20,867 nt of DNA from a virus (IMGVR_UViG_3300028666_000028:1-20867); one strand, 5' to 3'; numbered from the stretch's first letter, positions 1 through 17,067 are shown. The notes: generated from the letters alone by a model not told the origin. Program-made: numbers and translations.

Positions 1-1069
1 ATCCTTCTTTACGTTCAACGAGTATAAGTATTTGATCTTTATCAGATATTCTATTCTGTACAATATCTGTAATAGATTCAAGTAACTCTAATCCTCCATA
101 ATTACTTTTATATTCAGTCTGATAGTTACTAGAAGGTTTACCTTTAAGCTTAATGATATTAAATTCAACTGGTGTTAGATAACCTTCCTTAGTTGCTTTA
201 GATGCACTGTAATCATAAACTACTTCACCTGATACTCCCCACAAATCAAGAGTCTTTGAATCATTACGCAAGTAAGTACCAGATAGTCCCAAACGATAGT
301 AAATGCCCTGGAACAATGGCAAGAGCTTTGTAAAGGACTCAGAGGCGGAATGATGACATTCGTCCAGCACAAGCAAATCTATGCCGTCTATAAGCAGTTC
401 TGCTAAGCCTTGCTTCTGTAGGCTACCTAATGACTGTATTGTAATAATTCTAATAGGCTTAAGCTTTTTATTCTTTTTAATGTCCAAAGTAGACACTTTT
501 TGTACATTTTTTAATCCAAATGAATTTTCTAGTACATCGTAAGCTTGAGTCAAAAGTGCAGAAGATGGCACTACAAATAGAACATTGACTCCCAATTCTT
601 TTATAATTTGAGCAGCTATACGAGTCTTACCGGACCCTACTGCCATTTGAAGTACACCTCTAGCCCTTCCAATAAATGCATCCACTGCTTCTTTTTGGTA
701 GGGTCTAAGATCATGTGGTTTATTATTCCATCTAAATAGTTGATATGATTCAGGTTTAACTCTATCATCTATTTGTATATAGTTACCTAATAGATCTCTA
801 ACTAAATGAAGTAGTCCAGTTGGAAATCTATTGTACTCATCTAACCAACAAACTGTATCTGGACCTAGAGCTTTGAAGCGTTCTTTAAGAATAGAGATAA
901 GTGGACCTTGTCTTCTAGACTTAGCTCTTTGAAGTTGACTATAAATCATTTGCTTCTCTCTGATGACCTCTTCATTGGTATAAGTGAGCTTAGTCTTGAC
1001 AGATGCAAGTATATCTGTACTGAATGATTGCAGTTGACAAAATGAATTATTTATGATAAGTCTAGACAT
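1..1069 (-). CDS. SF2 DNA/RNA helicase (UvsW/ResIII-like DExH), 3' end outside window
   Basis: Hand translation from ATG at 1069 (AGGA upstream): Q-motif LRPYQKEA, Walker A AVGSGKT, motif Ia VVPSSALLTQ, motif II DECHH, motif III GLSGT; open to the left edge; absent from the ORF track because it is truncated. Confidence 0.92.
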   Translation of the reverse strand, partial: MSRLIINNSFCQLQSFSTDILASVKTKLTYTNEEVIREKQMIYSQLQRAKSRRQGPLISILKERFKALGPDTVCWLDEYNRFPTGLLHLVRDLLGNYIQIDDRVKPESYQLFRWNNKPHDLRPYQKEAVDAFIGRARGVLQMAVGSGKTRIAAQIIKELGVNVLFVVPSSALLTQAYDVLENSFGLKNVQKVSTLDIKKNKKLKPIRIITIQSLGSLQKQGLAELLIDGIDLLVLDECHHSASESFTKLLPLFQGIYYRLGLSGTYLRNDSKTLDLWGVSGEVVYDYSASKATKEGYLTPVEFNIIKLKGKPSSNYQTEYKSNYGGLELLESITDIVQNRISDKDQILILVERKEG

Positions 1070-1211
1070 ATATCCTATATTTCCATATATTTTTATCCAT
1101 TCTTAACCATAATTCTACGCTATAAATACTATTGTCATATATACTATGCTTTGTATATACTTCATAAGGCGGTATCCCATTATAACCTAATGATTTAACT
1201 AGACTATTCAC
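1062..1211 (-). CDS. micro-ORF family member (49 aa, MNSLVKSLGY...IWKYRIYV)
   Basis: GTG start overlapping the stop of the FGE gene, AGGA 7 nt upstream; both family motifs present. Confidence 0.65.
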   Translation of the reverse strand: MNSLVKSLGYNGIPPYEVYTKHSIYDNSIYSVELWLRMDKNIWKYRIYV

Positions 1212-1342
1212 AATTTTGTCCTCACGAGGCGGAACCCCAAATAGCTGCCCTGAGACTCAGGCGAGTAGTAGTTGCGATAAGCCGAACGCAACGCCTGCGC
1301 AACGTTGAACCAACTACCGCCACGGAGCACGCGGAACGAGCC
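1208..1342 (-). other. DGR variable region (VR) candidate
   Basis: Abrupt GC rise (77/132 nt, about 58%, over 1211-1342 versus roughly 30% in the rest of the gene); variable codons TTC, GTT, TAT, TAC, TAC, TCT, GGC, AGC, TAT are all of the NNY form expected from AAC/AAT templates. Confidence 0.75.
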
Positions 1343-1834
1343 TTTACTAGGTCCTTTAGGATCTATACCACCTTTTAACATTTCATCATACCAGTCTTCA
1401 GTCCACTCCCAAACATTGCCGTATATATCATATAAACCAAAGTAATTTGGGAGTTTACTGCCTACTTTAATAGTTTTACCTGAATTGAAATGAGCATACT
1501 TATGTAACTGGTCTTCATTGTCACCAAAGAAGTAATTAGAAGTTAAACCGCATCCTGCTGCATATTCCCATTCAGCTTCAGTAGGTAATCTATAATTATA
1601 TTCTTTATTAAGTTTATTACATTTTTTAATGAACTCTTGAACATCTAACCATGAAACTTGTTCAACTGGTAAATCTTTACCTTTAAAGTTAGATGGATTC
1701 TTGCCAATTATCTTAACATACTGTTCTTGAGTCATTGGTGTAACTTGCATCTCATATGGTTTAGTAATAAAAGTTAATACTTTATTAGTTCCCATTAAGA
1801 ATGGTCTAGGTAATATTAGTTTAAAGTTATTCAT
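1208..1834 (-). CDS. FGE/sulfatase-modifying-factor-like (CLec fold) protein, probable DGR target
   Basis: FLMG, RLPTEAEWEYAA, NYFGLYDIYGNVWEW, RVLRGGSW...LRSAYR...GFRL motifs; lacks the catalytic Cys pair of true FGE. Confidence 0.9.
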   Translation of the reverse strand: MNNFKLILPRPFLMGTNKVLTFITKPYEMQVTPMTQEQYVKIIGKNPSNFKGKDLPVEQVSWLDVQEFIKKCNKLNKEYNYRLPTEAEWEYAAGCGLTSNYFFGDNEDQLHKYAHFNSGKTIKVGSKLPNYFGLYDIYGNVWEWTEDWYDEMLKGGIDPKGPSKGSFRVLRGGSWFNVAQALRSAYRNYYSPESQGSYLGFRLVRTKL

Positions 1835-1983
1835 ATAATTATATTCTTATTAGTTCGACCATTACCTTCATATATCCAATATCTTCTATATTCTTGTCCT
1901 GTAGTCTCAATTACAACTCTATATAAATGATAAACACTTATATAGTACTCAAGTTCACCTAATCTGTTAACTAGTTTATTCAT
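1831..1983 (-). CDS. micro-ORF family member (50 aa, MNKLVNRLGE...YWIY)
   Basis: ATGA overlaps with both neighbours; family motifs; shares YYISVY...IET with the adjacent member. Confidence 0.7.
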   Translation of the reverse strand: MNKLVNRLGELEYYISVYHLYRVVIETTGQEYRRYWIYEGNGRTNKNIII

Positions 1984-2129
1984 CTTCTTAATCCTAACAA
2001 ATGAGGATGTATATTAATACCCCATACCCATGCATATGCTATAGGATTAATACAAGTCTCAATAGATATATGATGCCAGTAAACGCTAACGTAGTACTTA
2101 TAATTAAACTGTCTATTAAGCTCTGTCAT
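1980..2129 (-). CDS. micro-ORF family member (49 aa, MTELNRQFNY...WVWG)
   Basis: Family N-terminal motif; YYVSVY...IET matches the 1831-1983 member. Confidence 0.65.
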   Translation of the reverse strand: MTELNRQFNYKYYVSVYWHHISIETCINPIAYAWVWGINIHPHLLGLRR

Positions 2130-2437
2130 TTATATAACCTTTCACCTAGGTAACTGTTAACCCATTAACAAATAATAGTAGAACTGCTTAGGCTAATAGT
2201 AAATCAGCTAAAGCAAAACCTTATAAGGGATCTGTTAAGGATTTAGTTAGCCTTACGGCTTATTAGCCACCTTAACCAGAGAGCAAATATACAAGCGAAC
2301 CTGTTTGAATGCCCTTACAATATATGTACTACTGACAAGTTTAATTTCATAGGTGAAGCTTCTACTGTTGTATATTCGACTTCAGCTACTGTTTTTCTTA
2401 TCAGTTCGTGCCTTTAGTTAGCTTATTTAGAGACGAG
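2130..2437 (-). ncRNA. candidate structured non-coding RNA or cis element
   Basis: About 300 nt with no ATG-initiated ORF of note in an otherwise packed operon; several complementary segments (2141-2148/2350-2357, 2232-2240/2270-2279, GTAA-capped hairpin 2249-2260 on minus, 2155-2170). Confidence 0.3.
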
Positions 2438-2545
2438 CTAAGGCTTACTAGTTAAACGTCCTTTAATATAAAATCTTCCTGTGTAATAATAATAAAACTT
2501 ATAATCTTTATAACATAATCCTAACTGTGTGCATAGGTGATTCAT
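2438..2545 (-). CDS. micro-ORF family member (35 aa, MNHLCTQLGL...)
   Basis: Family N-terminal motif, Tyr-rich, lacks the late Trp. Confidence 0.55.
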   Translation of the reverse strand: MNHLCTQLGLCYKDYKFYYYYTGRFYIKGRLTSKP

Positions 2546-2546
2546 A

Positions 2547-2666
2547 TTATTTTCTAAAGTAACTCCAAATTGTTATATAGTTTATAGTTCGAATATATAC
2601 TCCATTTATGTTTGTATTTACTACAGTATACCCATAATAATTCATTTGTCTAACTAGAGCATTCAT
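2547..2666 (-). CDS. micro-ORF family member (39 aa, MNALVRQMNY...IWSY)
   Basis: ATGA overlap with upstream member; both motifs present. Confidence 0.65.
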   Translation of the reverse strand: MNALVRQMNYYGYTVVNTNINGVYIRTINYITIWSYFRK

Positions 2667-2776
2667 TTCTTTTCATACTTCCAAATACACTTATGAATGT
2701 AATAATCCCAAGTACATATATCTCCATTTGTACAAACTACATATCCCATACCCATAATACTATATAGCTGTTGCAT
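2663..2776 (-). CDS. micro-ORF family member (37 aa, MQQLYSIMGM...IWKY)
   Basis: Probable true start is the internal ATG of track ORF 2663..2866; divergent head, clear IWKY. Confidence 0.55.
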   Translation of the reverse strand: MQQLYSIMGMGYVVCTNGDICTWDYYIHKCIWKYEKK

Positions 2777-2924
2777 AATAGTTTCCTTGTACATTATATT
2801 GCCATATCCAATATCTTTGTTCATATACAGGATTTGGTACATCATAAAGTATATTGATAAAGCCACCTCTAGCTATACGAACATTGTACTGATACTTTCC
2901 AAACTGTTTTACTAGTTCACTCAT
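2760..2924 (-). CDS. micro-ORF family member (54 aa, MSELVKQFGK...YWIWQY)
   Basis: ATG directly follows the VWA gene stop (TAAATG); both motifs present. Confidence 0.7.
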   Translation of the reverse strand: MSELVKQFGKYQYNVRIARGGFINILYDVPNPVYEQRYWIWQYNVQGNYYATAI

Positions 2925-4124
2925 TTACTTAATCCTTACACTATTACCATAAGGAGGTTTAACATCTGAATTAAGAACCCATAAACATTTATAGGTTACA
3001 TCATTCCTATTAGGAAAGTCTGCATAGCCATCTGTTAAATAGATTACACCTTTATATCTCTCTTCAATTGCTAACTCATGTACAGGCACAAAGCTAGTAC
3101 CACCTGCGCATACTCGTTTAGCTTCAAAGCCCTTCTTATAATCTTCTTTGTGATGAATATAAGTATCAAAGTAAGCTACTTCAATATTTACCATTCCAGT
3201 GTTATAGATAGCATCTACTTCTGCAAAACACTTTTTAATATCTTCGTCAGACATACTACCAGACATATCAATACCGATTAGAAGATCTAATTTAGGCAGC
3301 TTCTTAACACCAGGTAGTTTACCTCTAAAACGTCTGTTAACTTTTTTCCAAGTGTTCTTAGTCTTAACATCGACTAAGCTTTGCATAAACTGTCTGAGTA
3401 CAATATGCCAAGGAACTTGTTTACTTGCTTCGTGATCTAATAGGAATTTCTCAATCTCTCTAGGAGTGTTACCAGCTGATAAACACTTAGCTCGTTTAGC
3501 TGCGTTAGCTGCTATTTCATCCATCATCTTCTCATCACGAGTAGACTCGGTAAAGTAATCGTGATCTTGATGTGGTTGACCGTCTCCACTTCCTTCCTCG
3601 TCCCCTGGCTTACCTTCACCAGGTTTACTTTTGCCTTTCATAATTTTACCCTGACTCTTTAACTTAGCATAGTAGTTAACCCATGAGTCTTGATTATGAC
3701 AATTAAAGTCTTGAGGATATACACCTCTAAACTGTGCACCCTTTGGTGCAGGTAGTCCAAGCTTATCACTCTTAACTAATTCAGATATTCCTGGATTGAT
3801 TTCCATATCCATTGCAACATTCGCCATCATGTAGTTAGCTTCAATGCCTAACTTATCTGATATAGCTTCAATCTGCTTTAGCTGAGTCTGCTTAATGTGA
3901 TCTTTATACAAGTGTTGTAGTTCATGTATAAGTAATCCTGCTTGCTCTGCTACTGTGAAGTTACTAAACTTCTCAGGATTAATAGTAATCTCAATTCTAG
4001 TTTGCACCTTTACATAAGCTACATACTCTGACTTCTCGTCTAGATTGATTTTCGCTTGTTGCAACAATGCATAATAGTAGGGATAGTTACTTAATAGATA
4101 TAATTGAAGCTGCTTTATGTCCAT
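2925..4124 (-). CDS. VWA-domain protein with N-terminal HExxH putative metallopeptidase domain (DUF2201-like), MoxR partner
   Basis: HELQH motif; MIDAS GIDMSGSMS, GGTSF, YLTDGY; start placed at ATG 4124 behind a GAGGA Shine-Dalgarno. Confidence 0.88.
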   Translation of the reverse strand: MDIKQLQLYLLSNYPYYYALLQQAKINLDEKSEYVAYVKVQTRIEITINPEKFSNFTVAEQAGLLIHELQHLYKDHIKQTQLKQIEAISDKLGIEANYMMANVAMDMEINPGISELVKSDKLGLPAPKGAQFRGVYPQDFNCHNQDSWVNYYAKLKSQGKIMKGKSKPGEGKPGDEEGSGDGQPHQDHDYFTESTRDEKMMDEIAANAAKRAKCLSAGNTPREIEKFLLDHEASKQVPWHIVLRQFMQSLVDVKTKNTWKKVNRRFRGKLPGVKKLPKLDLLIGIDMSGSMSDEDIKKCFAEVDAIYNTGMVNIEVAYFDTYIHHKEDYKKGFEAKRVCAGGTSFVPVHELAIEERYKGVIYLTDGYADFPNRNDVTYKCLWVLNSDVKPPYGNSVRIK

Positions 4125-4332
4125 TTGAATCCTCACTCTCTTTTAAATAATCTATCATAGATTGTAAAGTTTGTCTAGTATTATACTTTATCTTATTATC
4201 TTTTTGCCACTTAAGCGATTTTAGTCTATTACAACTTCTACAAGTATAATGCAAGCCATCTTTTTTACTTTTATCTTTACTAAATTCTGATAAAGGTTTT
4301 GATAGCTTGCATTTAGAGCAGACTTTTTCCAT
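4087..4332 (-). pseudogene. internally deleted homing endonuclease (CxxC zinc finger plus EndoVII-like C-terminal helix, no nuclease core)
   Basis: CSKCKLSKPLSEFSKDKSKKDGLHYTCRSCN resembles the N-terminus of the 18972 HNH; continues KIKYN then LQSMIDYLKES with no DH/HNH motif. Confidence 0.6.
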
Positions 4333-4333
4333 C

Positions 4334-5674
4334 TTAACCAGTTGCGGCATCCTTTCGCTTGTGCTTATTTACCTCGTCCGTGCTTTCTAAGAATCTCTTA
4401 TAAAGATTAGAATGTCCAGGGATAAGATCATCTCTGTAAAGATACATAACCATCGTGTTATAAGCATTGAAACGTTTGATTTGTCGTTTGTGGTGTTCTT
4501 CATTGTCTTGACCATTATTATCCTCACATGGTTTGTTAGTGATGATACTATGACTAATTTGATATAGAACATCATTAGGAACTTCTTTAAGAAAGTCAAT
4601 GATAGCATCAAGCTTCTTTTTATTAACTCCCATGTTATTCTTAACATTAGTTTGAAGTTCAGCCAATGCATCCTTGACTAGTTTAGGATCAGTATTTCGA
4701 TCATACTCAAGTATACTAACTTTGTAATCAATCTTATCAACTAGCTTCTCGAATATATCTTTTAGACCATTAACAATATTTTCACTAGTAGCACTAATCA
4801 AATCATTACGCATTTCACCATAGAACTTGTTATATCGTTCAAGAGCTTTAACAGGATCTTTAACAATTTCATCATAGCTAACTGGTTTATCTTGTGTATC
4901 TAACCAGCTAAGGAATGATGCTGCTGCATTAACTCCAACTGAACTAACGAGTACATCTTTAATCAAATCTCTGTCATTCTCTAGGCCATCCTTCTGAATA
5001 ACATTATATAGTTTACTAACCATTTCCCACAGACGAGGACAAGGTTCCATCTTGATAAGAGTATCTAATGGTTTTTCTGCGCCAGTAATGTTAGGCATAT
5101 GTTTAAGGAAACTAAGAAGTTTAGGATTAACTCGTTTAGAATCATCACCCCATTTAATAAATTCACTAGCTTGAGGTTCAAATGATACTACCATAAAGCG
5201 TTTGACTAATGCTGTACTCATAGTATTAGCTGTAGTGTACTCAGAACTAGCTGGGTTAATAGCTGCACAGATATAACTATCTGGATGCAATGCGTGAGTA
5301 TGAATACGTTTTTCTAGAACCAATTGAAGCATAGCTGATTCAACGTCTGGACGAGCATTGTTAAGTTCATCTAAGAAGATAACACAAGGTTCTGTTGGCA
5401 TCCATTCAGGTCTTGCCCATGATGTAACTCTATTGACTTTCTTTTTGCCATTAGTATCAGTAGTTTCAACTGACATAATATCAGGTATACCTACAAAATC
5501 TCCGACATCTTGTTGACTTGCAAATACTGAAACGAACTTGTGATTAGGAAAAACTTCCTTTGCAATCTGTTCAGTAATCTGACTCTTGCCGATACCTGAG
5601 TGTCCCACTAGAAGGTATGGTACTCGTGCTTTCATCGCAACATTCATTAACCTGATACTATCTTTAATGTTCAT
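4334..5674 (-). CDS. MoxR-like AAA+ ATPase
   Basis: Walker A GHSGIGKS, Walker B VIFLDELNNA, ALVKRF; upstream of a VWA gene in the usual pairing. Confidence 0.88.
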   Translation of the reverse strand: MNIKDSIRLMNVAMKARVPYLLVGHSGIGKSQITEQIAKEVFPNHKFVSVFASQQDVGDFVGIPDIMSVETTDTNGKKKVNRVTSWARPEWMPTEPCVIFLDELNNARPDVESAMLQLVLEKRIHTHALHPDSYICAAINPASSEYTTANTMSTALVKRFMVVSFEPQASEFIKWGDDSKRVNPKLLSFLKHMPNITGAEKPLDTLIKMEPCPRLWEMVSKLYNVIQKDGLENDRDLIKDVLVSSVGVNAAASFLSWLDTQDKPVSYDEIVKDPVKALERYNKFYGEMRNDLISATSENIVNGLKDIFEKLVDKIDYKVSILEYDRNTDPKLVKDALAELQTNVKNNMGVNKKKLDAIIDFLKEVPNDVLYQISHSIITNKPCEDNNGQDNEEHHKRQIKRFNAYNTMVMYLYRDDLIPGHSNLYKRFLESTDEVNKHKRKDAATG

Positions 5675-5702
5675 TATCCTATCTCCTCATTTAAGTTAAA
5701 GT

Positions 5703-6635
5703 TCAAAATTCTTCTATGTCCCGCTTATTAATTCCCATCAATCTATCATATTTCATTTGAGCTAATCGCCTACGTTTTTGCATAGGTGATTCATTCTTAT
5801 TTTCATCATACTGGAAGTCTTTTAATCTGTCAAGTGCCTCATTAAAAGGTACATCAAGACAAAGAACACTTATGATTAAGTCTTTAATATGATCTATTGT
5901 AAAGCCTTCTGTTGCTTTAGCCCATACATCTATATCAATGTTATCATCGGCATGAATCTTATTAGATAGATAAACCTTTCGAGTCTCTTCATTAGGCAAT
6001 CCAACTTCAATTATACTGGCAAACCTACTAGGTCTATTCTTAAATCTATTAGGTATTCTATCAAGGTAGTTAGTAGTTCCAATATAAACAACGTTATCTA
6101 TTTGCATTTCACCATCTAATAGGCTTAAGAAGTCTGATTCATTAGCTTCAATTAAATCATCAAACTCTTCCCATACGACTAAACATCTGATATCACCTTG
6201 TATTTCTCTTATACACTTAACAACATATTGTAACATTCCAGGGGAAGGTGAAAAGAATACAATACCACCTTGTTTAACTTCAGCTTCCATTAACTGAGAT
6301 ACACAAGCTGACTTGCCAGTTCCAGGTAAACCGTGTAGAATAATACCACGCTTATAAACCAATTGTCGTTTAGTGAACTTTGCTTTAGTTTCTTTAGTCC
6401 AAAACTTCTCAACTTCTTTGATAACCTTCTCTGAAGTAAAGTCAGGTAGTCTAATAAGTGAATCGGTCATAGCTGACATACCTTCTAGGTATATTTGACC
6501 CATTGGATCTTGTTGTATAGTATATATACCAGGTTCTAGCTTCTTAGTTTTCTTATTAGGGCGTCCAAAGTAATAGGAGTTACCTTGTTTTTGATAATGT
6601 GATACGCCAACTTTAATTTCGTTTAGTATATTCAT
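5703..6635 (-). CDS. AAA+ ATPase (single-domain, BCS1-like architecture)
   Basis: Walker A GLPGTGKS, Walker B variant VVWEEFD, second region of homology TTNYLDRIPNRFKNRPSRF. Confidence 0.85.
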   Translation of the reverse strand: MNILNEIKVGVSHYQKQGNSYYFGRPNKKTKKLEPGIYTIQQDPMGQIYLEGMSAMTDSLIRLPDFTSEKVIKEVEKFWTKETKAKFTKRQLVYKRGIILHGLPGTGKSACVSQLMEAEVKQGGIVFFSPSPGMLQYVVKCIREIQGDIRCLVVWEEFDDLIEANESDFLSLLDGEMQIDNVVYIGTTNYLDRIPNRFKNRPSRFASIIEVGLPNEETRKVYLSNKIHADDNIDIDVWAKATEGFTIDHIKDLIISVLCLDVPFNEALDRLKDFQYDENKNESPMQKRRRLAQMKYDRLMGINKRDIEEF

Positions 6636-6654
6636 TTGAAACCTTTAATCATTA

Positions 6655-6683
6655 AGTATATCATACATTTATTATATAATCAA
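6655..6683 (-). promoter_or_regulatory. sigma70-type promoter for the AAA/MoxR/VWA operon
   Basis: TTGATT-17 nt-TATACT with TG extended -10 on the minus strand. Confidence 0.65.
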
Positions 6684-6805
6684 CTAAAATAAGAATAATA
6701 CCATATATCTCTATATGCTGAATAATTACAAAGTCCTATCTTTATTACCTTATCTGATTTATCTATTAGATAAGTTAAATTTAATTGTTTAATTAAATTA
6801 TTCAT
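6680..6805 (-). CDS. micro-ORF family member (41 aa, MNNLIKQLNL...IWYY)
   Basis: Internal ATG of track ORF 6680..6952; both motifs present. Confidence 0.65.
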   Translation of the reverse strand: MNNLIKQLNLTYLIDKSDKVIKIGLCNYSAYRDIWYYSYFS

Positions 6806-7007
6806 TGTCCTTAACTCCATTATCAACTTCCACTTCCAACAGTACACTACTTTTAGAATTAAGTAAAGAGATAGCCGCAAGCATATAAGCATATGCCTGT
6901 AACTTATGTGAGTCTCTTTGATATTCTGAATGTCGTGATAAGTCCACAACATTCTTTATTGCATAAGAATGAAGGTTAACTAAGTCTTTTTCTGTTATCT
7001 TAATCAT
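6798..7007 (-). CDS. hypothetical protein (69 aa)
   Basis: ORF track; ATGA overlap with upstream gene. Confidence 0.7.
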   Translation of the reverse strand: MIKITEKDLVNLHSYAIKNVVDLSRHSEYQRDSHKLQAYAYMLAAISLLNSKSSVLLEVEVDNGVKDNE

Positions 7008-7129
7008 TTCATTTTCCAGTCAGGGTAAGTATAATCCCAAAATATTTTAGTAACATCTTTCATGGAATAACCTACGCTGTTAGTTATAAAGTATCTGTCA
7101 AATCCAAATGATGTAAAGAGTTTATTCAT
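7004..7129 (-). CDS. micro-ORF family member (41 aa, MNKLFTSFGF...FWDY)
   Basis: ATGA overlaps on both sides; family motifs. Confidence 0.65.
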   Translation of the reverse strand: MNKLFTSFGFDRYFITNSVGYSMKDVTKIFWDYTYPDWKMK

Positions 7130-7284
7130 CTTCTAGTACGCCCTTTACGATAAGGTTTATATTGTGTACTAAACGACCATACTTTATTTTCCCTACCATA
7201 TCTACTAGAAATCCCAATTGATATATTGTAGCCATCATCTAAAACATATGAAATATAACCAAATTGTAATACAAGTTTATTCAT
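7126..7284 (-). CDS. micro-ORF family member (52 aa, MNKLVLQFGY...VWSF)
   Basis: Overlapping chain; family motifs. Confidence 0.7.
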   Translation of the reverse strand: MNKLVLQFGYISYVLDDGYNISIGISSRYGRENKVWSFSTQYKPYRKGRTRR

Positions 7285-7408
7285 TATTTATCCTAAAAAA
7301 CCAGTTAGTTGTATATGACTTATATGGCACAATCATTCTTGTAATACCTACAAGGCCATAAATATCACAATAGTTTATATATCCTAATATTTTAACTAGT
7401 TCATTCAT
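7277..7408 (-). CDS. micro-ORF family member (43 aa, MNELVKILGY...NWFF)
   Basis: Overlapping chain; family motifs. Confidence 0.65.
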   Translation of the reverse strand: MNELVKILGYINYCDIYGLVGITRMIVPYKSYTTNWFFRINNE

Positions 7409-7598
7409 ATCCTAATTCTTTGCGACAAGCTGGACACTGTTTATTAAACTTATGAGCAGGTTTAAATTCTTCTTGACAATTTAAACAGTTGTTATATCCT
7501 TTTTTCTTTGTCTTTGCTATGAACTTAATATAAAGTTCATTAAGATAAGTTTCATCATCCTCTTCAATTAATCTAAATATACTTTCATTGTTTTTCAT
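7401..7598 (-). CDS. small zinc-finger protein (CxxC-x13-CxxC)
   Basis: CLNC...CPAC; probable start MKNNES at 7598. Confidence 0.65.
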   Translation of the reverse strand: MKNNESIFRLIEEDDETYLNELYIKFIAKTKKKGYNNCLNCQEEFKPAHKFNKQCPACRKELGYE

Positions 7599-8034
7599 TA
7601 GGAGGACCTTTATCTTCTGCGGCAGGCAATCCAAAGAACTCTTCAATGATTCGTGTACTTACTTGAATAATCTGTTTGTTACGCATATAGATAGCGTATG
7701 ATTTCATTACCTCTTCATACTTAGGAATGTTATCTTCAAACTTAACTCCAAATCCAGTAGACAGTTTACTCTTCTTAGTTACTGCCCAACGCTTGTGAGT
7801 TACTTTACCATTTAAAGTTAAAATCCCCATATCTTGTGGTAGTTTAAAGTTTATCTTAACTATATCTTTTACATTAGGTTGAGTCTTGCAGTTAATAAAA
7901 ACGCCAATTGGTGATAAATCAAATAAAGTTCCTTCTATATCTGTTAGTGCATCTGCAAACGTATAAGTACATGCTTCTGATAAAATAGGTATTCTTATAC
8001 TTGATCTACGTTCTTTTTGTTTACTTGTTTCCAT
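7585..8034 (-). CDS. PilZ-domain protein (putative c-di-GMP receptor)
   Basis: R10-x-x-x-R14 (ERRSSIR) and D39-x-S41-x-x-G44 (DLSPIG), plus G-x-V and GFGVKF strands typical of the PilZ barrel. Confidence 0.85.
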   Translation of the reverse strand: METSKQKERRSSIRIPILSEACTYTFADALTDIEGTLFDLSPIGVFINCKTQPNVKDIVKINFKLPQDMGILTLNGKVTHKRWAVTKKSKLSTGFGVKFEDNIPKYEEVMKSYAIYMRNKQIIQVSTRIIEEFFGLPAAEDKGPPNEKQ

Positions 8035-8188
8035 CTTTATTTATCCCTGCTAATAGTTGATCTATAAGAGTATCATAGTCTCCATTATCTAAATAGATAG
8101 TTTGCCAATGAGTATCATTCTTTTTACGATAACGTATTCTTGTTTTATCGCTATTATCTGATATTAGAATTAATTTATTTTCACTCAT
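8021..8188 (-). CDS. hypothetical protein (55 aa, MSENKLILIS...)
   Basis: AGGAG Shine-Dalgarno before ATG 8188; the longer track start overlaps a micro-ORF in another frame. Confidence 0.6.
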   Translation of the reverse strand: MSENKLILISDNSDKTRIRYRKKNDTHWQTIYLDNGDYDTLIDQLLAGINKDGNK

Positions 8189-8348
8189 TGAATATACTCC
8201 TATATGTATAACAAAAAATCCAATCACTCGTTTCTGCATATGAATAATAACGATATATATGTATTCCAATGGCGCGTGTCTGTGTAATAACTCCAAACTC
8301 GCCCCTTGGTTCATAATAATAACCTAATTGTTTAACTAACTCAATCAT
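8181..8348 (-). CDS. micro-ORF family member (55 aa, MIELVKQLGY...DWIF)
   Basis: Near-consensus head ELVKQLGY; overlaps both neighbours by 8 nt. Confidence 0.7.
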   Translation of the reverse strand: MIELVKQLGYYYEPRGEFGVITQTRAIGIHIYRYYSYAETSDWIFCYTYRSIFNE

Positions 8349-9898: not shown

Positions 9899-10222
9899 TT
9901 ACCATCTTAATGTTATAACTCCAGCTGACAATAAACTTCCAACTCCGCCGCTAATCAAACTTCTTTTAGTATCACTAGGGAAGCCTTCAGATGCCTTATA
10001 GGCAACGTTTGCGGCAGTTGATACTGCAACGCCTACAACTGTACACAAAGTCTTATCTGAAGGGCTATTGATTCGTTCGCAAGCTAACTCTGTTACATCT
10101 GTTATAGCATATGCTCCGCCTAAATGTGCAGTGATGTGCATTAAGTTATCTTGTGTAGTATCTGCATAGCAAGTATTGCATATGCAAATAAGTAATAGTA
10201 TTAATACTTGTAATATCGCCAT
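9899..10222 (-). CDS. secreted or membrane protein with signal peptide
   Basis: Hydrophobic N-terminus ending CYA-D; Gly/Ala-rich hydrophobic helices. Confidence 0.7.
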   Translation of the reverse strand: MAILQVLILLLICICNTCYADTTQDNLMHITAHLGGAYAITDVTELACERINSPSDKTLCTVVGVAVSTAANVAYKASEGFPSDTKRSLISGGVGSLLSAGVITLRW

Positions 10223-10308
10223 AGTCCTTGTCCTGTTATAATAATTACATTAAATTTACTTCCTACATGGTAAGATTCATTTATTAAATGTTCAACTAAT
10301 TCATTCAT
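10201..10308 (-). CDS. micro-ORF family member (35 aa, MNELVEHLIN...LWRY)
   Basis: ATGA overlap with the sigma-r4 gene stop; both motifs recognisable. Confidence 0.6.
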   Translation of the reverse strand: MNELVEHLINESYHVGSKFNVIIITGQGLWRYYKY

Positions 10309-10601: not shown

Positions 10602-10671
10602 ATAATAAACCATATTAATACCATAATCCAAACTACAACCCAAAGTAAACAAGCAAACACATCGTCATTCA

Positions 10672-11301: not shown

Positions 11302-11478
11302 TTATTTCACTCCCACTAATAGATCTTCTACATCCAGGAAGTTATAGAGATTGTACAATCTTGAATGTACTTCTAATGGTATCTTTGTACCTAATTCTGC
11401 ATTTATCATTTGATCTATTTTAATTTGTGCTTTAAACTCTGCTAATGCATTTAGTATATCTTTATTATGTTGAGTCAT
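11302..11478 (-). CDS. hypothetical protein (58 aa, MTQHNK...)
   Basis: GAGGTG Shine-Dalgarno before the internal ATG of the track ORF. Confidence 0.6.
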   Translation of the reverse strand: MTQHNKDILNALAEFKAQIKIDQMINAELGTKIPLEVHSRLYNLYNFLDVEDLLVGVK

Positions 11479-11521
11479 ATTTATCACCTCAATTAAAGAA
11501 TAACATAGTCTATTTGCTTTG

Positions 11522-12064
11522 TCAACGTCTCCAAAAACCACTAAAGGTTTGACAATAAGTGAAAGAATTTCCAATATAATCAACTACTTCCCAAACAGGT
11601 GCATATGAATAGTGGCCGCTATAGTGATTATAATTACTTTGTTCAAACCCTGCATATCTAAACTCTTTAAAATTCTCTATAATGTTCATCATTGATTCAT
11701 TATCATTAGGACCATCTGGAATAGTTAACTCACTCAATCTATTCACCTTTTTAAGTCGTCCAGTTGGAGTCTTATATAAACCTTGTAAGAATGCTAATCC
11801 TTGTTTAGTATGATCTAATTCAATTCTAACTATCTTGCTAGGTTTACCTTTGTATTCATGAATATCAGTTAACTCTTTTATCTCATGGCTAGTTAGATTG
11901 TGCACTAATCCATGATGATTAAGTATAGACTTTAAGTTAACAATCTCTTGTTTAGTAACAAAGCCTTTGTCTGCAATAGTTGCATACTTATGATATCGTT
12001 TACTAAACTTAGGCAATACTCCCAAATCTTCTTTTAATTTTCTTAGGCTATAATCTGCATTCAT
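11522..12064 (-). CDS. phage hypothetical protein (180 aa)
   Basis: Long ORF, TAATG coupling; no function recognised. Confidence 0.8.
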   Translation of the reverse strand: MNADYSLRKLKEDLGVLPKFSKRYHKYATIADKGFVTKQEIVNLKSILNHHGLVHNLTSHEIKELTDIHEYKGKPSKIVRIELDHTKQGLAFLQGLYKTPTGRLKKVNRLSELTIPDGPNDNESMMNIIENFKEFRYAGFEQSNYNHYSGHYSYAPVWEVVDYIGNSFTYCQTFSGFWRR

Positions 12065-12300
12065 TAGTAAAGCTCCTCATATTTAAATTTATACTTTGGA
12101 TATGTACTAAAATTAAGTAATAGATCTTTAATGTTTACAATTAAATATTCATTGTTATCTCTTTTAATTAAAATCTTCTCATGTCCTTCTGCTCTTAATA
12201 ATCCTTCTTTTAAATTAGTAGATGGAATAATTGGAGTTACTGATTCTTTTAATTTAGTATACCATACTTTAAAATCATATTCTTTAATCAAGTTATTCAT
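12064..12300 (-). CDS. hypothetical protein (78 aa)
   Basis: ORF track; overlaps both neighbours. Confidence 0.7.
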   Translation of the reverse strand: MNNLIKEYDFKVWYTKLKESVTPIIPSTNLKEGLLRAEGHEKILIKRDNNEYLIVNIKDLLLNFSTYPKYKFKYEELY

Positions 12301-12464
12301 TTAGTTAGTCTCCCTTCTAAGAACTCAATTACTTCAGCCGCCACATTAGCGTACTCAATCCAACCTTTGCTAGTTAACGTGTTACCAGCTTTCTCAGCTT
12401 CAATAGCTTTTATCATCCATTCAACTCTTAATTGTCTAACGTCTTCGACTGCACTATCTTTCAT
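12297..12464 (-). CDS. hypothetical protein (55 aa, MKDSAVEDVR...)
   Basis: GAGGAG Shine-Dalgarno; ATGA overlap downstream. Confidence 0.65.
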   Translation of the reverse strand: MKDSAVEDVRQLRVEWMIKAIEAEKAGNTLTSKGWIEYANVAAEVIEFLEGRLTK

Positions 12465-12631
12465 ATAATTAACTCCTCAGTTTGACTATATCTATAACTA
12501 TATTGAATGCAGTTATCCTCTTCCAAGTCTCTGTTATTTGTTTATTAAACCAATCTAACCTTAGTTGCATTCTATGGAATATTATAGTTACTTCATACTT
12601 AAAATAATTTATTCTATAAACTCTCATATTG

Positions 12632-13015
12632 TTACTTTACAATTGCATACTTAATTCCAGTTGTTAAGTCTTCTGTATAATCCCCATTGTAGTTATCGTT
12701 TACAGCTTCAAACCTACCTAATACTTCATTGACTTCATTAACAGTAACAAAGCTAGGATGCCTAGAGCCGTCAAGTTTCAATATACAGTCTTGATTATAC
12801 TTTCGACAATGATCTTGTGCAGTCTTATCATTCCATCCTAGAATCACTACTGAATCTTCTTTAGTTCCTTTATATACTCCTTTGACTTCTTTAATAGAGT
12901 ATCCATCATCTCTAAGTTGTCTAACAAAGTCAGCGTGAAAGCTTTGATTTACGGTTAGCGATTGACTTGTTTGATATACGCTTGCGATATAAGTTGTTGG
13001 ATAGATTGGCTTCAT
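12632..13015 (-). CDS. S-adenosylmethionine lyase (T3 gp0.3 SAMase-like)
   Basis: N-x-x-x-H helix, G46-V-Y-K...E53-D-S, Q75-D-C-I-L and C-terminal GRFEAV...GDYTED parallel the recalled T3 SAMase layout (GCY...EEK...QDCVL...GSFQEV...GCFTID). Confidence 0.72.
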   Translation of the reverse strand: MKPIYPTTYIASVYQTSQSLTVNQSFHADFVRQLRDDGYSIKEVKGVYKGTKEDSVVILGWNDKTAQDHCRKYNQDCILKLDGSRHPSFVTVNEVNEVLGRFEAVNDNYNGDYTEDLTTGIKYAIVK

Positions 13016-13016
13016 T

Positions 13017-13478
13017 TTAATTTACTCCTATAACTTGCTTCAAACTAGAAGCACTTAAGTTGTTAAGATTATACAATTGACGGCCTAATAGCTTATTAAC
13101 TACATCAATCTTCTGATTAAGTTCTGTTATCTTAGCTTGACGCTGTACATTCTTAGCCTTATGTGATCTAGGTTTAGCAATCTCATTCTTTAGTCTAGTA
13201 ACTTCCATAGTATGATAAGCTATAGCACTTTCTGGTGATTGCAAACCTTTAGGTGCTTCAATCTCTAGATCAATCTTAATGCCTAGGTCTCTAAGTACAC
13301 TTCTAATCTTCCATTGATGCTTATTAGTGCTAGGGCTATAGTTATAATCATTGAATATAACTAAACCATTAATCTTATCAACAAACCTCCACCAATCATA
13401 GGAATATGCTCGACAAGTTGCAGGATTAAAGCTAACATTAGATGCCTTGTATAACTTAAGTTTACTAAAGTACTTCAT
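13017..13478 (-). CDS. phage hypothetical protein with YSxSTxKHQ motif
   Basis: AAGGAG Shine-Dalgarno before MKYFSK; C-terminal coiled coil. Confidence 0.75.
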   Translation of the reverse strand: MKYFSKLKLYKASNVSFNPATCRAYSYDWWRFVDKINGLVIFNDYNYSPSTNKHQWKIRSVLRDLGIKIDLEIEAPKGLQSPESAIAYHTMEVTRLKNEIAKPRSHKAKNVQRQAKITELNQKIDVVNKLLGRQLYNLNNLSASSLKQVIGVN

Positions 13479-13654
13479 TTTAAAGACTCCTTTGCTAATA
13501 CGTTTCGAATAGCTATACATTCACTTTCAGTTTGACACTCTGTTAGCATCTTGTCAAGCTGTATAACTATATTACTTCTAGGTTTGCTATAAGCTTTAGG
13601 TTGCATCGCTAGATGTAAACCTGTTAACGCTATAGCTAAAATAATCCATCTCAT
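13475..13654 (-). CDS. small protein with N-terminal hydrophobic segment (59 aa)
   Basis: Hand translation MRWIILAIALTGLHLA...; overlaps both neighbours. Confidence 0.55.
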   Translation of the reverse strand: MRWIILAIALTGLHLAMQPKAYSKPRSNIVIQLDKMLTECQTESECIAIRNVLAKESLK

Positions 13655-13779
13655 TAGTTACCCTTCACTACTTCAACATATCCCTTGAAAGCTGCAGCAT
13701 ACTCTTTAGCCATGTTTACAGCTTCATATTCAGTATCAAACTCGTCTATGACTTCATTATTCCATATTAGTTTAAACAT
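13654..13779 (-). CDS. small phage protein (41 aa, MFKLIWNNEVIDEFDTEYEA...)
   Basis: GAGGAG Shine-Dalgarno; TAATG overlap downstream. Confidence 0.65.
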   Translation of the reverse strand: MFKLIWNNEVIDEFDTEYEAVNMAKEYAAAFKGYVEVVKGN

Positions 13780-13850
13780 GTCAATACTCCTCTATTCAAA
13801 GGCTAAGCAAATCACATATCCAATTATGACAATTAAAATCAGTGTAAACA

Positions 13851-14171
13851 TTAGATTGACTCCTCAACATAGAAGTGCTCAATTGTAGTCTTAGGCTTCT
13901 TATTATGCAGTGTAACCCACGTTTCACGCGTAAAGTATTCATTGCAATCTTCATACTTAACTTGCTTCTCAAATACCCATCCTATTGAAACTACACTTCC
14001 ATCTAGCTTCTCAATGAATACTTTACCTGTACATCTTCCGTTATCCTTCTGTAAAGCTTTAAAGAGTATAGCTTTACTATCCGTGAAAGTCTCATATACA
14101 TTGCTTTCACCTAAACCAGCATTATTAGTCTTATCAATCCAACATTCATTAATCATTAAGTTAGTTTTCAT
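13851..14171 (-). CDS. phage hypothetical protein (GRCTGKVF...IGWVF...ETWV)
   Basis: AAGGAG Shine-Dalgarno, 106 aa ORF. Confidence 0.8.
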   Translation of the reverse strand: MKTNLMINECWIDKTNNAGLGESNVYETFTDSKAILFKALQKDNGRCTGKVFIEKLDGSVVSIGWVFEKQVKYEDCNEYFTRETWVTLHNKKPKTTIEHFYVEESI

Positions 14172-14184
14172 TGTATAATTCTCC

Positions 14185-14397
14185 TTACTTAGTTATCATA
14201 ACGTATTGTTTACCTAAGCGCAATACCTTGCCGCATTTCATTAGCCTAACAAACTCCTCAAAGCCAACCAATATCTCTTTAAACAAAGGTATCTTGTATC
14301 CTTCTAACGTTAGCTCATATAAGTGTATTCTCACCATACAACTATACAATGCAACAACCATGCCAACTTTTAACGCTCTAATAGCCTCTATAAGCAA
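14185..14397 (-). CDS. possible hypothetical protein (70 aa)
   Basis: ORF track only; non-ATG start and no clear Shine-Dalgarno. Confidence 0.35.
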   Translation of the reverse strand: MLIEAIRALKVGMVVALYSCMVRIHLYELTLEGYKIPLFKEILVGFEEFVRLMKCGKVLRLGKQYVMITK

Positions 14398-14947
14398 TCT
14401 TCTATCTTAATGTTACACTTTACGTTCACTATTGCCTATAACAAAGCCTAATATGGTATATAACGACAATCTTTGTTACCTTAACTTGTATACATATAAG
14501 CAACTATAGTTAACAGTAAAAGCAAACAGTTAGCTAAGTCATGCTATAAGCAAGCTATAGACTGTATACTCACGTTATAAGCTATCTATATACTGTTAAC
14601 CAATAGACTGTATACAGTCAGCAGCAACCGCCGTACAGCCAACGCAACATTGGTCAACGGCAAACGGTATAGGTTTACAGTTACCATGCAATCTTTATCT
14701 ATGTAATGTTTGCATATGTAGAGTTTGCAGTGTATAAGTACGGTACACAACACGCTGCATGCAAGTATCATGCCAATAGTCAACAGCTACCCCCCTAATG
14801 GACCATAGGGGTTAACGCTGAGGGTTAGCCTATATGGTTGCCAGAGTGTGGGTGCACAGTTTAAATAAAAGAATGCAGTATAGGTCAATTGTGTACGTTT
14901 ACAGTGTACTATATGCTAGTATACCCCTAGATGGGTTATACAGTGTG

Positions 14948-15127
14948 CTATATATGGTCTACAGTTGACATATAATAAAAATAATCCCATACAGCTTCTG
15001 TTGACATATAATAAAAATAATCCCATACAGCTTCTGTATACTTAGAATCACACAAGATAACTGTTGTACCGCAAGCTTGTACATTATACATATAAACATA
15101 GTTAAACTGCTGACAGAGATCATTCAT
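14948..15127 (-). CDS. micro-ORF family member (59 aa, MNDLCQQFNY...) with an in-frame 12-aa duplication
   Basis: Translates TEAVWDYFYYMS twice; family head. Confidence 0.7.
   Translation of the reverse strand: MNDLCQQFNYVYMYNVQACGTTVILCDSKYTEAVWDYFYYMSTEAVWDYFYYMSTVDHI
14964..15035. repeat. perfect 36-bp tandem duplication
   Basis: gttgacatataataaaaataatcccatacagcttct at 14964-14999 and 15000-15035. Confidence 0.97.
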
Positions 15128-15272
15128 AATCGTAATACCCTATAGCATCCCATTGAACTATCCATAAGTAATGTTTTATCTCAACTAATGAGGCTTGTGG
15201 GCTTATACCTACTTCACCAAATTGAGGATATGAAGCATAATATAAACCATACGCATTTAAAAGGCTATTCAT
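15120..15272 (-). CDS. micro-ORF family member (50 aa, MNSLLNAYGL...LWIV)
   Basis: Overlapping chain; family motifs. Confidence 0.65.
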   Translation of the reverse strand: MNSLLNAYGLYYASYPQFGEVGISPQASLVEIKHYLWIVQWDAIGYYDYE

Positions 15273-15405
15273 AATTGTATTGCCATATAAGTTGGCCAGA
15301 ACTCCATGAGCTTTGATAAGGTACCCAAATACCTATGAAAGCCTGATTGCTAAGACCAAAGGAAGCCTCATAACTATAGCATAAGTGTTTACAAAGCATA
15401 TTCAT
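15265..15405 (-). CDS. micro-ORF family member (46 aa, MNMLCKHLCY...IWQY)
   Basis: Internal ATG of track ORF 15265..15459. Confidence 0.65.
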   Translation of the reverse strand: MNMLCKHLCYSYEASFGLSNQAFIGIWVPYQSSWSSGQLIWQYNYE

Positions 15406-15541
15406 AATAGGTGTATTCCCATAATACTTCGCCATAGCACATTCTATTAACGATATCATAGTTAGACCATATGCCTACTTGCATGATGTCTTCATCAACA
15501 TCGTAATTACCATATCCTAAAGCTACAATTAGGTTATTCAT
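15389..15541 (-). CDS. micro-ORF family member (50 aa, MNNLIVALGY...LWEY)
   Basis: Hand translation; both motifs present. Confidence 0.65.
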   Translation of the reverse strand: MNNLIVALGYGNYDVDEDIMQVGIWSNYDIVNRMCYGEVLWEYTYYEYAL

Positions 15542-15654
15542 ATAAGTCTGCTTTTAACATATAGAAATTATATTTTAAATCCATTATAATCATAGTTGGC
15601 CTCTAAAGTTCATATAAGCCTCTACATGAAGACTTTTTGTGAAGGTAAGGTAGA

Positions 15655-15816
15655 TCATATAAGTTTCCTATAAAACCACAAATCCTGCGTATAATCGCTT
15701 ACTGGGCCTATTATATGTCGAACTTCATAAAAGACTGCATATGGTTGACATGGATCTACAAATTGGTATATAACATGGTATTTGAAGTGTCCAAACTGTT
15801 GTATTAGCTTATTCAT
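15655..15816 (-). CDS. micro-ORF family member (53 aa, MNKLIQQFGH...LWFY)
   Basis: Internal ATG of track ORF 15655..15846, ATGA overlap. Confidence 0.7.
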   Translation of the reverse strand: MNKLIQQFGHFKYHVIYQFVDPCQPYAVFYEVRHIIGPVSDYTQDLWFYRKLI

Positions 15817-15950
15817 GGATATATAACTTTCCGCCATAAACAACATTCATCTATACCAAATTCATCTCCTCTGCAAATACCAATTGCACCACATACATCA
15901 TTAATAGTATAGTAATATTCATAATTGAATTGTTCACAAAGTAACTTCAT
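15813..15950 (-). CDS. micro-ORF family member (45 aa, MKLLCEQFNY...LWRK)
   Basis: ATGA overlaps on both sides; family motifs. Confidence 0.65.
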   Translation of the reverse strand: MKLLCEQFNYEYYYTINDVCGAIGICRGDEFGIDECCLWRKVIYP

Positions 15951-16084
15951 GGCCATATCCTTATATCCCATATAGGTTCTCCTCCCATTCTTCTAATTCT
16001 TAAACAAATATACCACATATTTGGGACTGCAACTGAATCATTTGCTTCATAACTATAACCTAACTGTTTAAGTAGATTATACAA
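15947..16084 (-). CDS. micro-ORF family member (45 aa, TTG start, MYNLLKQLGY...IWDI)
   Basis: Near-consensus LLKQLGY head; start codon uncertain. Confidence 0.55.
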   Translation of the reverse strand: MYNLLKQLGYSYEANDSVAVPNMWYICLRIRRMGGEPIWDIRIWP

Positions 16085-16313
16085 TTATTCTACCCCAAGG
16101 CATATACAAACAAATCTCGGTATATCCATTAGTATAGTTTAATCCCGAATATACAGCTTGCATATGTAAATCTCTTTTTAAACTATACATATCTACAACA
16201 ACCCACCATATTGGCTCAAGTCCATAACACCCTGGAGCAGTAAGATATAATAGTTGATCACCAGGACCAAATTTAGATAAAGTATAACCTAGTGTTTTAA
16301 AGAGTTCATTCAT
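16077..16313 (-). CDS. micro-ORF family member (78 aa, MNELFKTLGY...IWWV)
   Basis: ORF track; family head. Confidence 0.7.
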   Translation of the reverse strand: MNELFKTLGYTLSKFGPGDQLLYLTAPGCYGLEPIWWVVVDMYSLKRDLHMQAVYSGLNYTNGYTEICLYMPWGRIIV

Positions 16314-16870
16314 TTAGCAGTCTTAAGCCATTGCCAAATAGATTTTAATTTTGATATACCTTTATGAATTAATTTGACTTCTTTTGCTGGCGTAGAATAT
16401 TTTAAAGGAACTGGAAGGGTATACTGCTGTACATTTTGTTGTAAAGATGCTTGCTGTAACTGTCCTGATAAGGACAATTGAGATTGTTGCATTGCAGCCT
16501 GTTGATACTGTGCTTGTTGTTGACTTAATGCTGCACCACTTAATAATAACCCTCCAGTTAGACCACTAATACCTGATGAAGTATAAAATCCACCTTGATA
16601 AGTTTGAGAATATGTATAAGAAGGTAATACATAAGGATTTTGTTTTGCAATATATTGTGCATATTCATCACCAAATCTAGTTGTGTATTTCCAATGAATA
16701 ACCGGTGGATTATATGACATATATGCCGAATATGGAGTCGGTGTAATATATAATCCTAAACCTGTAAGATTATTTGAATCGGGAACAATATAAACAGGTG
16801 GAGTAATTAACCGTATATAACATTGCTCAAATTCTAATTGCATTCCTAATCTTTTAAATAGTTCGTTCAT
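16310..16870 (-). CDS. family-head protein fused to a Gln/Ser/Tyr-rich low-complexity tail (186 aa)
   Basis: MNELFKRLG head, HWKY, then SQQQAQYQQAAMQQSQ..., ending in amphipathic KGISKLKSIWQWLKTAK. Confidence 0.8.
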   Translation of the reverse strand: MNELFKRLGMQLEFEQCYIRLITPPVYIVPDSNNLTGLGLYITPTPYSAYMSYNPPVIHWKYTTRFGDEYAQYIAKQNPYVLPSYTYSQTYQGGFYTSSGISGLTGGLLLSGAALSQQQAQYQQAAMQQSQLSLSGQLQQASLQQNVQQYTLPVPLKYSTPAKEVKLIHKGISKLKSIWQWLKTAK

Positions 16871-17067
16871 AATATCCTCATCCTTGGGTAAGTGTTATAA
16901 AACCATTCTCCATTCCATCCAGTGGAAAATAAAGTATCACTTTTCATAGTTTGTTCTGCTTCTAATCTATTGATATACTTATATAAAAGTTTATCTGTAT
17001 TAAAAGTTAAAATAATCCCTTTTCTATAAACTGAATAATAACCTAATGATTTGAAGAGATTACCCAT
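16867..17067 (-). CDS. micro-ORF family member (66 aa, MGNLFKSLGY...EWFY)
   Basis: First gene behind the leftward promoter; family head; start could be 17085 instead. Confidence 0.6.
   Translation of the reverse strand: MGNLFKSLGYYSVYRKGIILTFNTDKLLYKYINRLEAEQTMKSDTLFSTGWNGEWFYNTYPRMRIL

Follow-up and report, generated by a model that had tools for sequence, protein, structure and literature searches.

Are the very short reading frames that crowd one arm of an uncultured phage genome genuine genes and, if so, what might so many related micro-proteins do? The question is raised by the first 20,867 bp (hereafter the window) of the 84,867-bp virus record IMGVR_UViG_3300028666_000028, in which a first-pass annotation, made from the sequence alone, had picked out a family of about 23 minus-strand open reading frames (ORFs) that share an N-terminal motif. 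All 23 are present, 22 of them encoding 35-78 residues and one 186 residues, and they lie in clusters of seven (1062-2924), four (6680-7408) and ten (14948-17067), with singletons at 8181-8348 and 10201-10308. The figure of 23 thus holds for the window, but a search of the rest of the genome with a hidden Markov model (HMM) adds six, found with an N-terminal profile at genome positions 60495-60686, 60679-60858, 62010-62165, 65523-65690, 78448-78603 and 84270-84368 (all minus strand), which brings the family to 29 members. All 29 copies lie on the leftward arm of the genome (minus strand, 17085 through 1 and then circularly from 84867 down to ~60.5 kb, at 60495), where they cover ~4.8 kb or 5.6% of the 84.9-kb genome without a single broken copy or pseudogene, and one third of them stand as singletons or pairs between unrelated genes. 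We conclude that these ORFs are a real, lineage-restricted multigene family encoding a diverged protein of ~50 residues that has not previously been described.

A real family of 29 micro-genes

To score the members, we built an HMM from 24 of them and evaluated each with itself left out. Twenty-one of the 24 reached at least 12 bits (maximum 27.5 bits), whereas the best score in 30 dinucleotide-preserving shuffles of the whole genome was 11.8 bits, never 12, and only one in 1200 residue-shuffled members attained that value. A profile of the N-terminal block alone found the 29 ORFs at 9.4-25.7 bits, the next best match scoring 7.7 bits, and every one of its 29 matches lay on the minus strand, at a start codon, with the frame open for at least 32 codons to the stop. 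Very short ORFs, an odd composition and weak overall selection are also what chance ORFs, or a non-coding DNA or RNA repeat in AT-rich sequence, would offer, but the shuffle controls, the synonymous variation at invariant residues (see below), the gap-free tiling with start-stop overlaps and the preservation of the same protein motifs in independent arrays of other phage contigs make it highly improbable that these are not genes. The claim of the first-pass annotation that constraint acts on the protein and not on a DNA repeat is therefore borne out by the leave-one-out scores, the shuffles and the codon variation, while its remark that most members fall below ORF-calling cut-offs needs correction, as many had been called and at least 15 are already in public protein collections. 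We also considered and rejected the idea that the arrays are a decayed beta-propeller or other repeat gene: every unit begins at a separate start codon with a separate junction, and some members stand alone between unrelated genes.

The family is restricted to a narrow phage lineage

The first-pass annotation did not recognise the family, and neither did the databases. When 37 members were compared with Pfam, the six matches obtained were all to single members and below the cut-off (a relationship to DUF5370 was dropped, being seen for one member only at 19 bits, where 25 would be required); PHROGs returned nothing below E 0.1 and, with E values allowed up to 10, a profile search of PDB sequences gave 0 matches. 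Among 1.84 billion representative proteins, a profile search recovered 15 matches, of which 14 are the window phage's own and one is foreign. The foreign match lies on a 1,526-bp public contig (L022), within a head-to-tail series of ten or more members that follows an HNH-like gene fragment. Five tandem members were found on another phage contig (L002), whose terminase is 78% identical to that of the window phage and whose array occupies the same position, as the first genes of the arm diverging from the terminase operon. Two more strain contigs of the L002 type carry four and five members, and although the flanks are 92-98% identical among the three strains, the member content differs, one member being unique to L002 and one to L050. 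Recent duplication was seen only in these L002-type relatives.

Outside this group the family was absent where we looked: four near-complete relatives of 74-85 kb, with terminases 36-39% identical, have no members, nor do the flanks on a 9.3-kb contig with a terminase 60% identical (L046, CAZNER010000075.1), and a tblastn search of cultured phages with one member gave no match. Two loci on viral contigs (L023 and L024) that had been picked up with a degenerate DNA pattern for M-N-D/E-L-V-K/R-x-L-G-Y were rejected by the HMM as chance. The family is thus restricted to a narrow lineage in which copy content varies between relatives. Beside the arrays of the relatives we noted a small ORF that contains a tandem repeat of 15 residues directly after the array of L049 (1334-1483) and, in both L049 and L050 at ~3085-3935, an ORF made almost wholly of Leu/Met/Ser repeats on one frame, which is probably low-complexity repeat DNA. 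The L046 contig has been binned into a metagenome-assembled genome of Candidatus Saccharibacteria, which may be a hint to the host or a binning artefact.

Constraint is concentrated on a few core positions

In an alignment of 37 sequences from three phage sources, M1, L4, Y13 and W42 are invariant. The synonymous variation at conserved positions that the first-pass annotation had pointed out is plain to see, since the invariant Leu4 is written by four codons (CTA 10, CTT 6, TTA 5, CTC 4) and Gly9 by two (GGT 9, GGA 8), and G+C content at third codon positions is 0.20, lower than at first and second positions. A codon-model test was given little weight because it is biased by the absence of stops. 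Composition also sets the members apart: Tyr makes up 12.8% and Trp 3.8% of their residues, compared with 3.3% and 0.8% for the large genes of the phage, in line with the Tyr/Trp-rich label they had been given, aromatics reach 20.6% against 7.5%, and the mean net charge is ~0. The late W-x-Y motif said to occur in nearly all members is less general than claimed, being present in its strict form in ~16 of the 29, although a late Trp is found in 26.

Beyond these positions the sequences have drifted far. Paralogs of the window phage share a median identity of 31% (maximum 53%) and are no closer to one another than to members from other contigs, and for this reason we regard the expansion in the window phage as old or fast, with every copy intact. 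The ratio of nonsynonymous to synonymous rates (dN/dS) between L002 paralogs ranges from 0.5 to 2.6, centred near 1, and the pooled pN/pS among orthologs of the three strains, which comes from only about 10 synonymous and 29 nonsynonymous differences in non-independent pairs, is 0.70 compared to 0.34 in flanking genes. The dN/dS comparison that had been proposed as a check on the family therefore only narrowly avoids an absence of purifying selection. Constraint is thus concentrated on a few core positions and on the open frame, with the remainder evolving almost freely.

A predicted helix and three-stranded sheet

Two AlphaFold2 models, computed with the paralog alignment for the window member at 8181-8348 and for one member from another contig, agree on a helix at residues 2-7 followed by three antiparallel strands (mean predicted local distance difference test score, pLDDT, 74.1 and 80.6). 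In the predicted scheme the helix corresponds to M-N-x-L-h-x-x-L/F-G/N-Y and the strands to Y-x-V, h-x-I-x-h and h-W-x-Y, where the conserved residues map to the helix and to alternating strand positions. For this reason the models fit a hydrophobic core that would be formed by Leu4, Tyr13, the late Trp and the alternating hydrophobics. The loop between strands 1 and 2 is 0 to ~15 residues long and, together with the surface, highly variable between copies, which supports the conserved scaffold with a variable surface proposed in the first-pass annotation.

Structure searches of the PDB with Foldseek (twice), VIA wide, AFDB clusters, BFVD and the ESM Atlas did not match any characterised fold significantly (best scores E 1.6-1.8 for PDB Foldseek and Z 3.6 for VIA), and an ESM Atlas feature search returned sub-threshold matches only. 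Uncharacterised phage proteins came closest in structure (BFVD E 0.14-0.24; in the Atlas, a 108-aa viral hypothetical protein at TM 0.74), while a match to the AcrIE2 fold is at noise level (E 2.6). The family resembles HicA and double-stranded RNA-binding domains (dsRBDs) in the order of its elements, an N-terminal helix that closes with a Gly-aromatic turn and then three antiparallel strands, and a few dsRBDs occur among the weak fold matches, but it differs from them in having no C-terminal helix, no HicA catalytic His motif and no sequence match. Membership in HicA/dsRBD was not supported: the fold match is not significant, the models end after strand 3 and the 37-sequence alignment holds no conserved His.

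Sheets so extremely aromatic might instead stack on single-stranded DNA or RNA, which would make the members small nucleic-acid binders that modulate replication, transcription or mRNA fate early in infection. Their place among replication genes and the presence of PC4-like, PriB, SSB, cold-shock and dsRBD proteins among the weak structural neighbours point in this direction. However, these structural matches are at noise level (Z at most 3.6; Foldseek E above 1), the members have a mean net charge of ~0 rather than a basic one, and a need for 29 divergent copies would remain unexplained, which leaves nucleic-acid binding a rather unlikely general role.

The models also bear on the possibility that the members have in their common N-terminal decapeptide an address tag that brings variable cargo to one partner by a capsid-targeting, degron or recruitment logic. 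The N-terminal block is indeed the best conserved part and also heads unrelated C-terminal parts (in the 186-aa Gln-rich protein and in the members at 78448-78603, 84270-84368 and 60495-60686), but in the models the helix packs onto the sheet and belongs to the fold, and the genes lie on the early arm, away from the head genes. The genome has no match to a prohead protease of the T4 type (PF03420) or the HK97 type (PF04586), but the PF03420 search is uninformative, as its control matched nowhere. We consider such a tag very unlikely.

Members are chained by start-stop overlaps, the first behind a putative divergent promoter region

The start codon overlaps the stop codon of the upstream ORF in 24 of the 29 members, by 4 nt in 11, 8 nt in ten, 17 nt in two and 1 nt in one, and two further members abut the upstream ORF within 0-1 nt. 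The 4-nt overlap is ATGA and the 8-nt overlap reads ATGAATGA, ATGAATAA or ATGAATAG. Because so many start codons overlap an upstream stop, the members are almost certainly read as coupled chains by termination-reinitiation. The overlaps also leave a mark on the proteins: as the ATGA and ATGAATGA junctions dictate the codon, residue 2 is mostly Asn (otherwise Lys, Ser, Thr or Ile), and its near-invariance is largely a by-product of the junction rather than an independent protein constraint, as are the frequent Y-E-stop and N-E-stop ends of upstream proteins.

A divergent pair of sigma-70-like promoter matches (17076-17141, both strands), each with an extended -10 TG, separates the leftward from the rightward arm, the minus-strand site at 17104-17076 matching 10 of 12 consensus positions and the plus-strand site at 17113-17141 matching 11 of 12. 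Ten members form the first block behind this pair, and the arrays may be expressed early, judging from their position beside two consensus promoter matches. Between the end of the leftward site and the ATG at 17067 lie 8 nt, and the mRNA of the first member might be leaderless or near-leaderless.

This first member (16867-17067, 66 aa; all members are on the minus strand) is the first gene of the leftward arm, with no upstream ORF within 90 nt and an N-terminal profile score of 12.2 bits. It is followed by the 186-aa member (16310-16870; profile 9.4 bits; 4-nt ATGA overlap), in which the N-terminal motif leads to a long insertion, an HWKY motif and a Gln-rich tail, and by a 78-aa member with a C-terminal extension (16077-16313; N-terminal profile 12.3 bits; 4-nt overlap). 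Next come a 45-aa member with a TTG start (15947-16084; 18.5 bits in the leave-one-out test, to which bit scores refer from here on unless stated; 8-nt overlap), a 45-aa member with five Cys (15813-15950; 21.7 bits; 4-nt overlap), a 53-aa member (15655-15816; 27.5 bits; 4-nt overlap), a 50-aa member that starts after a 61-nt gap (15389-15541; 15.2 bits), a 46-aa member (15265-15405; 21.9 bits; 17-nt overlap) and the weakest full-length member (15120-15272, 50 aa), which scores only 5.4 bits (N-terminal profile 11.1 bits) and has an 8-nt overlap. The array ends with a 59-aa member (14948-15127; 17.8 bits) that contains a 36-nt tandem duplication (14959-15030; copies 94% identical) repeating the W-D-Y segment in frame, and public Logan assemblies break at this duplication (contig ends at 14993 and 15008).

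Further down the arm, the singleton of 35 aa (10201-10308; 20.6 bits) overlaps an upstream 115-aa ORF by 4 nt, and the singleton of 55 aa (8181-8348; 20.2 bits; AlphaFold2 pLDDT 74) has an 8-nt overlap. The four-member cluster consists of members of 43 aa (7277-7408; 20.3 bits; 8-nt overlap), 52 aa (7126-7284; 24.9 bits; 8-nt overlap) and 41 aa (7004-7129; 15.9 bits; 4-nt overlap), and of a second 41-aa member that starts at an internal ATG of a 90-aa ORF (6680-6805; 25.1 bits) and overlaps a non-family ORF (6798-7007) by 8 nt. In the seven-member cluster, the leading member of 54 aa (2760-2924; 19.4 bits) abuts the stop of a VWA/metallopeptidase-like gene with a gap of 0 nt, and the next is a divergent member for which the earlier count of seven stands but the start does not, as it is better read from an internal ATG at 2776 (2663-2776, 37 aa; N-terminal profile 12.5 bits; 17-nt overlap), a frame that aligns with Y13 and W42. 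It is followed by a 39-aa member (2547-2666; 12.8 bits; 4-nt overlap), a Tyr-rich 35-aa member without the late Trp (2438-2545; 12.0 bits; N-terminal profile 10.9 bits) and, after an ORF-free gap (2130-2437), a 49-aa member with no upstream ORF (1980-2129; 15.0 bits). A 50-aa member (1831-1983; 13.1 bits) has a 4-nt overlap at each side, and the last, of 49 aa (1062-1211; 16.5 bits), has its GTG start on the stop of an FGE-like gene (GTGA overlap).

So stereotyped a junction, with members serving as coupled links between unrelated genes, raises the alternative that they are self-propagating or near-neutral micro-gene cassettes whose peptide folds harmlessly and has no specific target. Such cassettes would multiply by duplication and recombination at the ATGAATGA junction and the 30 conserved nt of the 5' end and would persist by keeping the operon coupled. 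The 31-nt DNA-level repeat at the 5' ends, the copy-number variation between strains and the selection values (paralog dN/dS ~1, ortholog pN/pS ~0.7) agree with this. Against it, all 29 copies are intact despite divergence to ~31% identity, the core residues are kept with synonymous codon changes, and coupling does not explain a conserved C-terminal Trp far from the junction. We judge the cassette explanation unlikely, though it is to be taken seriously.

Proposed role in host takeover or counter-defence

Taken together, we tentatively favour, at somewhat less than even confidence, the reading that the members are lineage-restricted, fast-evolving intracellular binders of the early arm that act in host takeover or counter-defence. 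Each copy would be a cytoplasmic mini-domain of ~45-55 residues; the copies would be expressed early, ten of them as the first block behind the divergent promoter region of the leftward early/replication arm, and translated as coupled chains; each member would engage a different host or phage macromolecule inside the infected cell, and the set would be renewed by duplication, loss and rapid sequence change. A role as binders is suggested by the position of the genes, the first of the early arm and conserved as such in a relative, and by the variation in copy content between strains. Of the earlier proposal of a scaffold with a variable aromatic surface, such as a library of binders of host proteins or for anti-defence, the scaffold and the variable surface thus stand, whereas the putative binding is argued from position and turnover. 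We infer with more reserve, and think it improbable in this strong form, that the 29 copies constitute a functional repertoire in which each has its own aromatic surface or loop for one host factor or defence protein, or in which copies form mixed oligomers; if that were true, the phage would hold a compact and evolvable "binder library" on a 45-residue scaffold, exploitable as a new binding scaffold.

Several observations weigh against a binder role. Whole-length selection is near-neutral, and the start-stop overlap (ATG-AAT-GA) accounts for some of the N-terminal conservation. The promoter pair is recognised by consensus matching, in a sequence whose total of such matches does not exceed that in shuffles, and we found no RNA run that contains the sequence. 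Moreover, both models were built on a shallow paralog alignment, and another predictor did not fold the chain confidently (pLDDT 38); its homodimer score of 0.02 says nothing either way on self-association.

Genome setting and neighbouring genes

The virus record has direct terminal repeats, is rated complete (33.6% GC) and comes from an uncultured soil/rhizosphere phage. Its rightward arm (plus strand, 17148 to ~60.3 kb) encodes the terminase (19733 onward) and large structural genes, and the leftward arm encodes, besides the family, a ResIII helicase, an FGE-sulfatase-domain protein, a DUF2201 VWA/metallopeptidase-like protein, two AAA ATPases and a PilZ protein; Shine-Dalgarno-like sites precede the large genes. 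Near-identical copies of the phage DNA are contained in several rhizosphere metagenome runs, and comparison of four such runs with the window yielded near-identical, low-coverage contigs with too few differences for a population-level analysis of selection. A megablast search of cultured phages with the whole window gave no match, and the terminase is at most 27% identical to those of cultured phages (best T5-like Vibrio phages), for which reason no host was deduced from it. The PilZ-domain protein (7585-8034, minus strand; Pfam E 3.8e-08) suggests that the host uses cyclic di-GMP signalling.

Within the first cluster, the FGE-sulfatase-domain gene (1208-1834, minus strand, 208 aa; Pfam E 1.5e-39) is joined to family members by 4-nt overlaps. 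Its chaining there could be taken to mean that the members are precursors of ribosomally synthesised and post-translationally modified peptides, with an N-terminal leader and a modified, variable aromatic core, perhaps with the FGE-like protein as modifier, and a conserved N-terminus followed by a hypervariable remainder containing Tyr, Trp and Cys would suit such precursors. Yet the "leader" has only ~10 residues, strand motifs are conserved through the supposed core, the models predict a folded domain, array-bearing relatives show no associated enzyme, and neither a radical SAM nor a YcaO gene (the two enzyme classes searched) is present in the genome; this explanation seems to us barely credible. 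A diversity-generating retroelement, with the GC-rich 3' end of the FGE-like gene as variable region, was likewise dismissed, as the complete genome has no RVT_1 reverse transcriptase match.

Immediately downstream of the ten-member array lies an ORF-poor and somewhat GC-richer stretch of ~775 bp (14172-14947), and in the relatives L049 and L050 the arrays are also followed by ~1 kb without called genes. An Rfam search of the window, this stretch included, gave no match; the stretch might encode a non-coding RNA or serve as an origin or in regulation. On the other arm, conserved genes of the terminase operon flank a Cys-rich 180-aa ORF with an HNH-like motif (18972-19514, plus strand). The ORF is missing at the syntenic L002 site (window 18935 corresponds to L002 5959 and window 19504 to L002 5979), an absence that makes it look like a mobile endonuclease gene that has been inserted. 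Unrelated contigs of the same runs also contain a foreign piece of 72 bp (19413-19484). A single tRNA-Met (CAT) was detected with aragorn on the leftward arm, outside the window (genome 80461-80534, minus strand).

Comparison with other viral expansions

Expansions of tiny domains in phages are already on record: in Bacillus phage G, a zinc ribbon is present in ~35 copies, an expansion called "unprecedented" (Iyer et al. 2021, PMC7824862). The two cases are alike in that dozens of diverged copies of one tiny domain occur in a single lineage and are read in terms of host-virus conflict or regulation. They differ in that the present family has no zinc ligands, is predicted to form a helix and three strands and is Tyr/Trp-rich, in that some copies are scattered over the early arm instead of all being gathered in one block, and in that the genome has 85 kb compared to ~500 kb, which makes copy density several-fold higher here. 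Thus, what is new is the protein family and an expansion unusually dense for an 85-kb genome.

Outside phages, the MGF (multigene family) proteins of African swine fever virus and the amplification of K3L in poxviruses are viral paralog sets ("genomic accordions") with fast changes in copy number and sequence that are linked to host antagonism. The likeness to them lies in paralog copy number and sequence that differ quickly between strains, but the proteins there are much larger and the hosts eukaryotic, while the copies of the window phage are old and highly diverged, not recent amplifications. A third comparison is with the polymorphic internal proteins of T4-type phages, variable small proteins behind a conserved capsid-targeting sequence of ~10 residues, some of which are anti-restriction proteins. 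These too have a conserved N-terminal decapeptide followed by a highly variable small protein, but our family has no sequence similarity to them, is located on the early arm and conserves strand motifs beyond the N-terminus.

The work thus adds an undescribed family of ~50 residues whose relatives among 1.84 billion representative proteins occur only in this phage lineage, and shows that a phage need not be of jumbo size to carry a large paralog expansion. The ATGA and ATGAATGA junctions exemplify how micro-genes can be strung together, or placed among unrelated genes, while translational coupling is preserved. Should each member turn out to have its own target, the family would offer a minimal scaffold for binding that is found in nature, along with new activities in host takeover or anti-defence; should there be no such targets, it would be a case of near-neutral proliferation of a gene family in a size-constrained genome.

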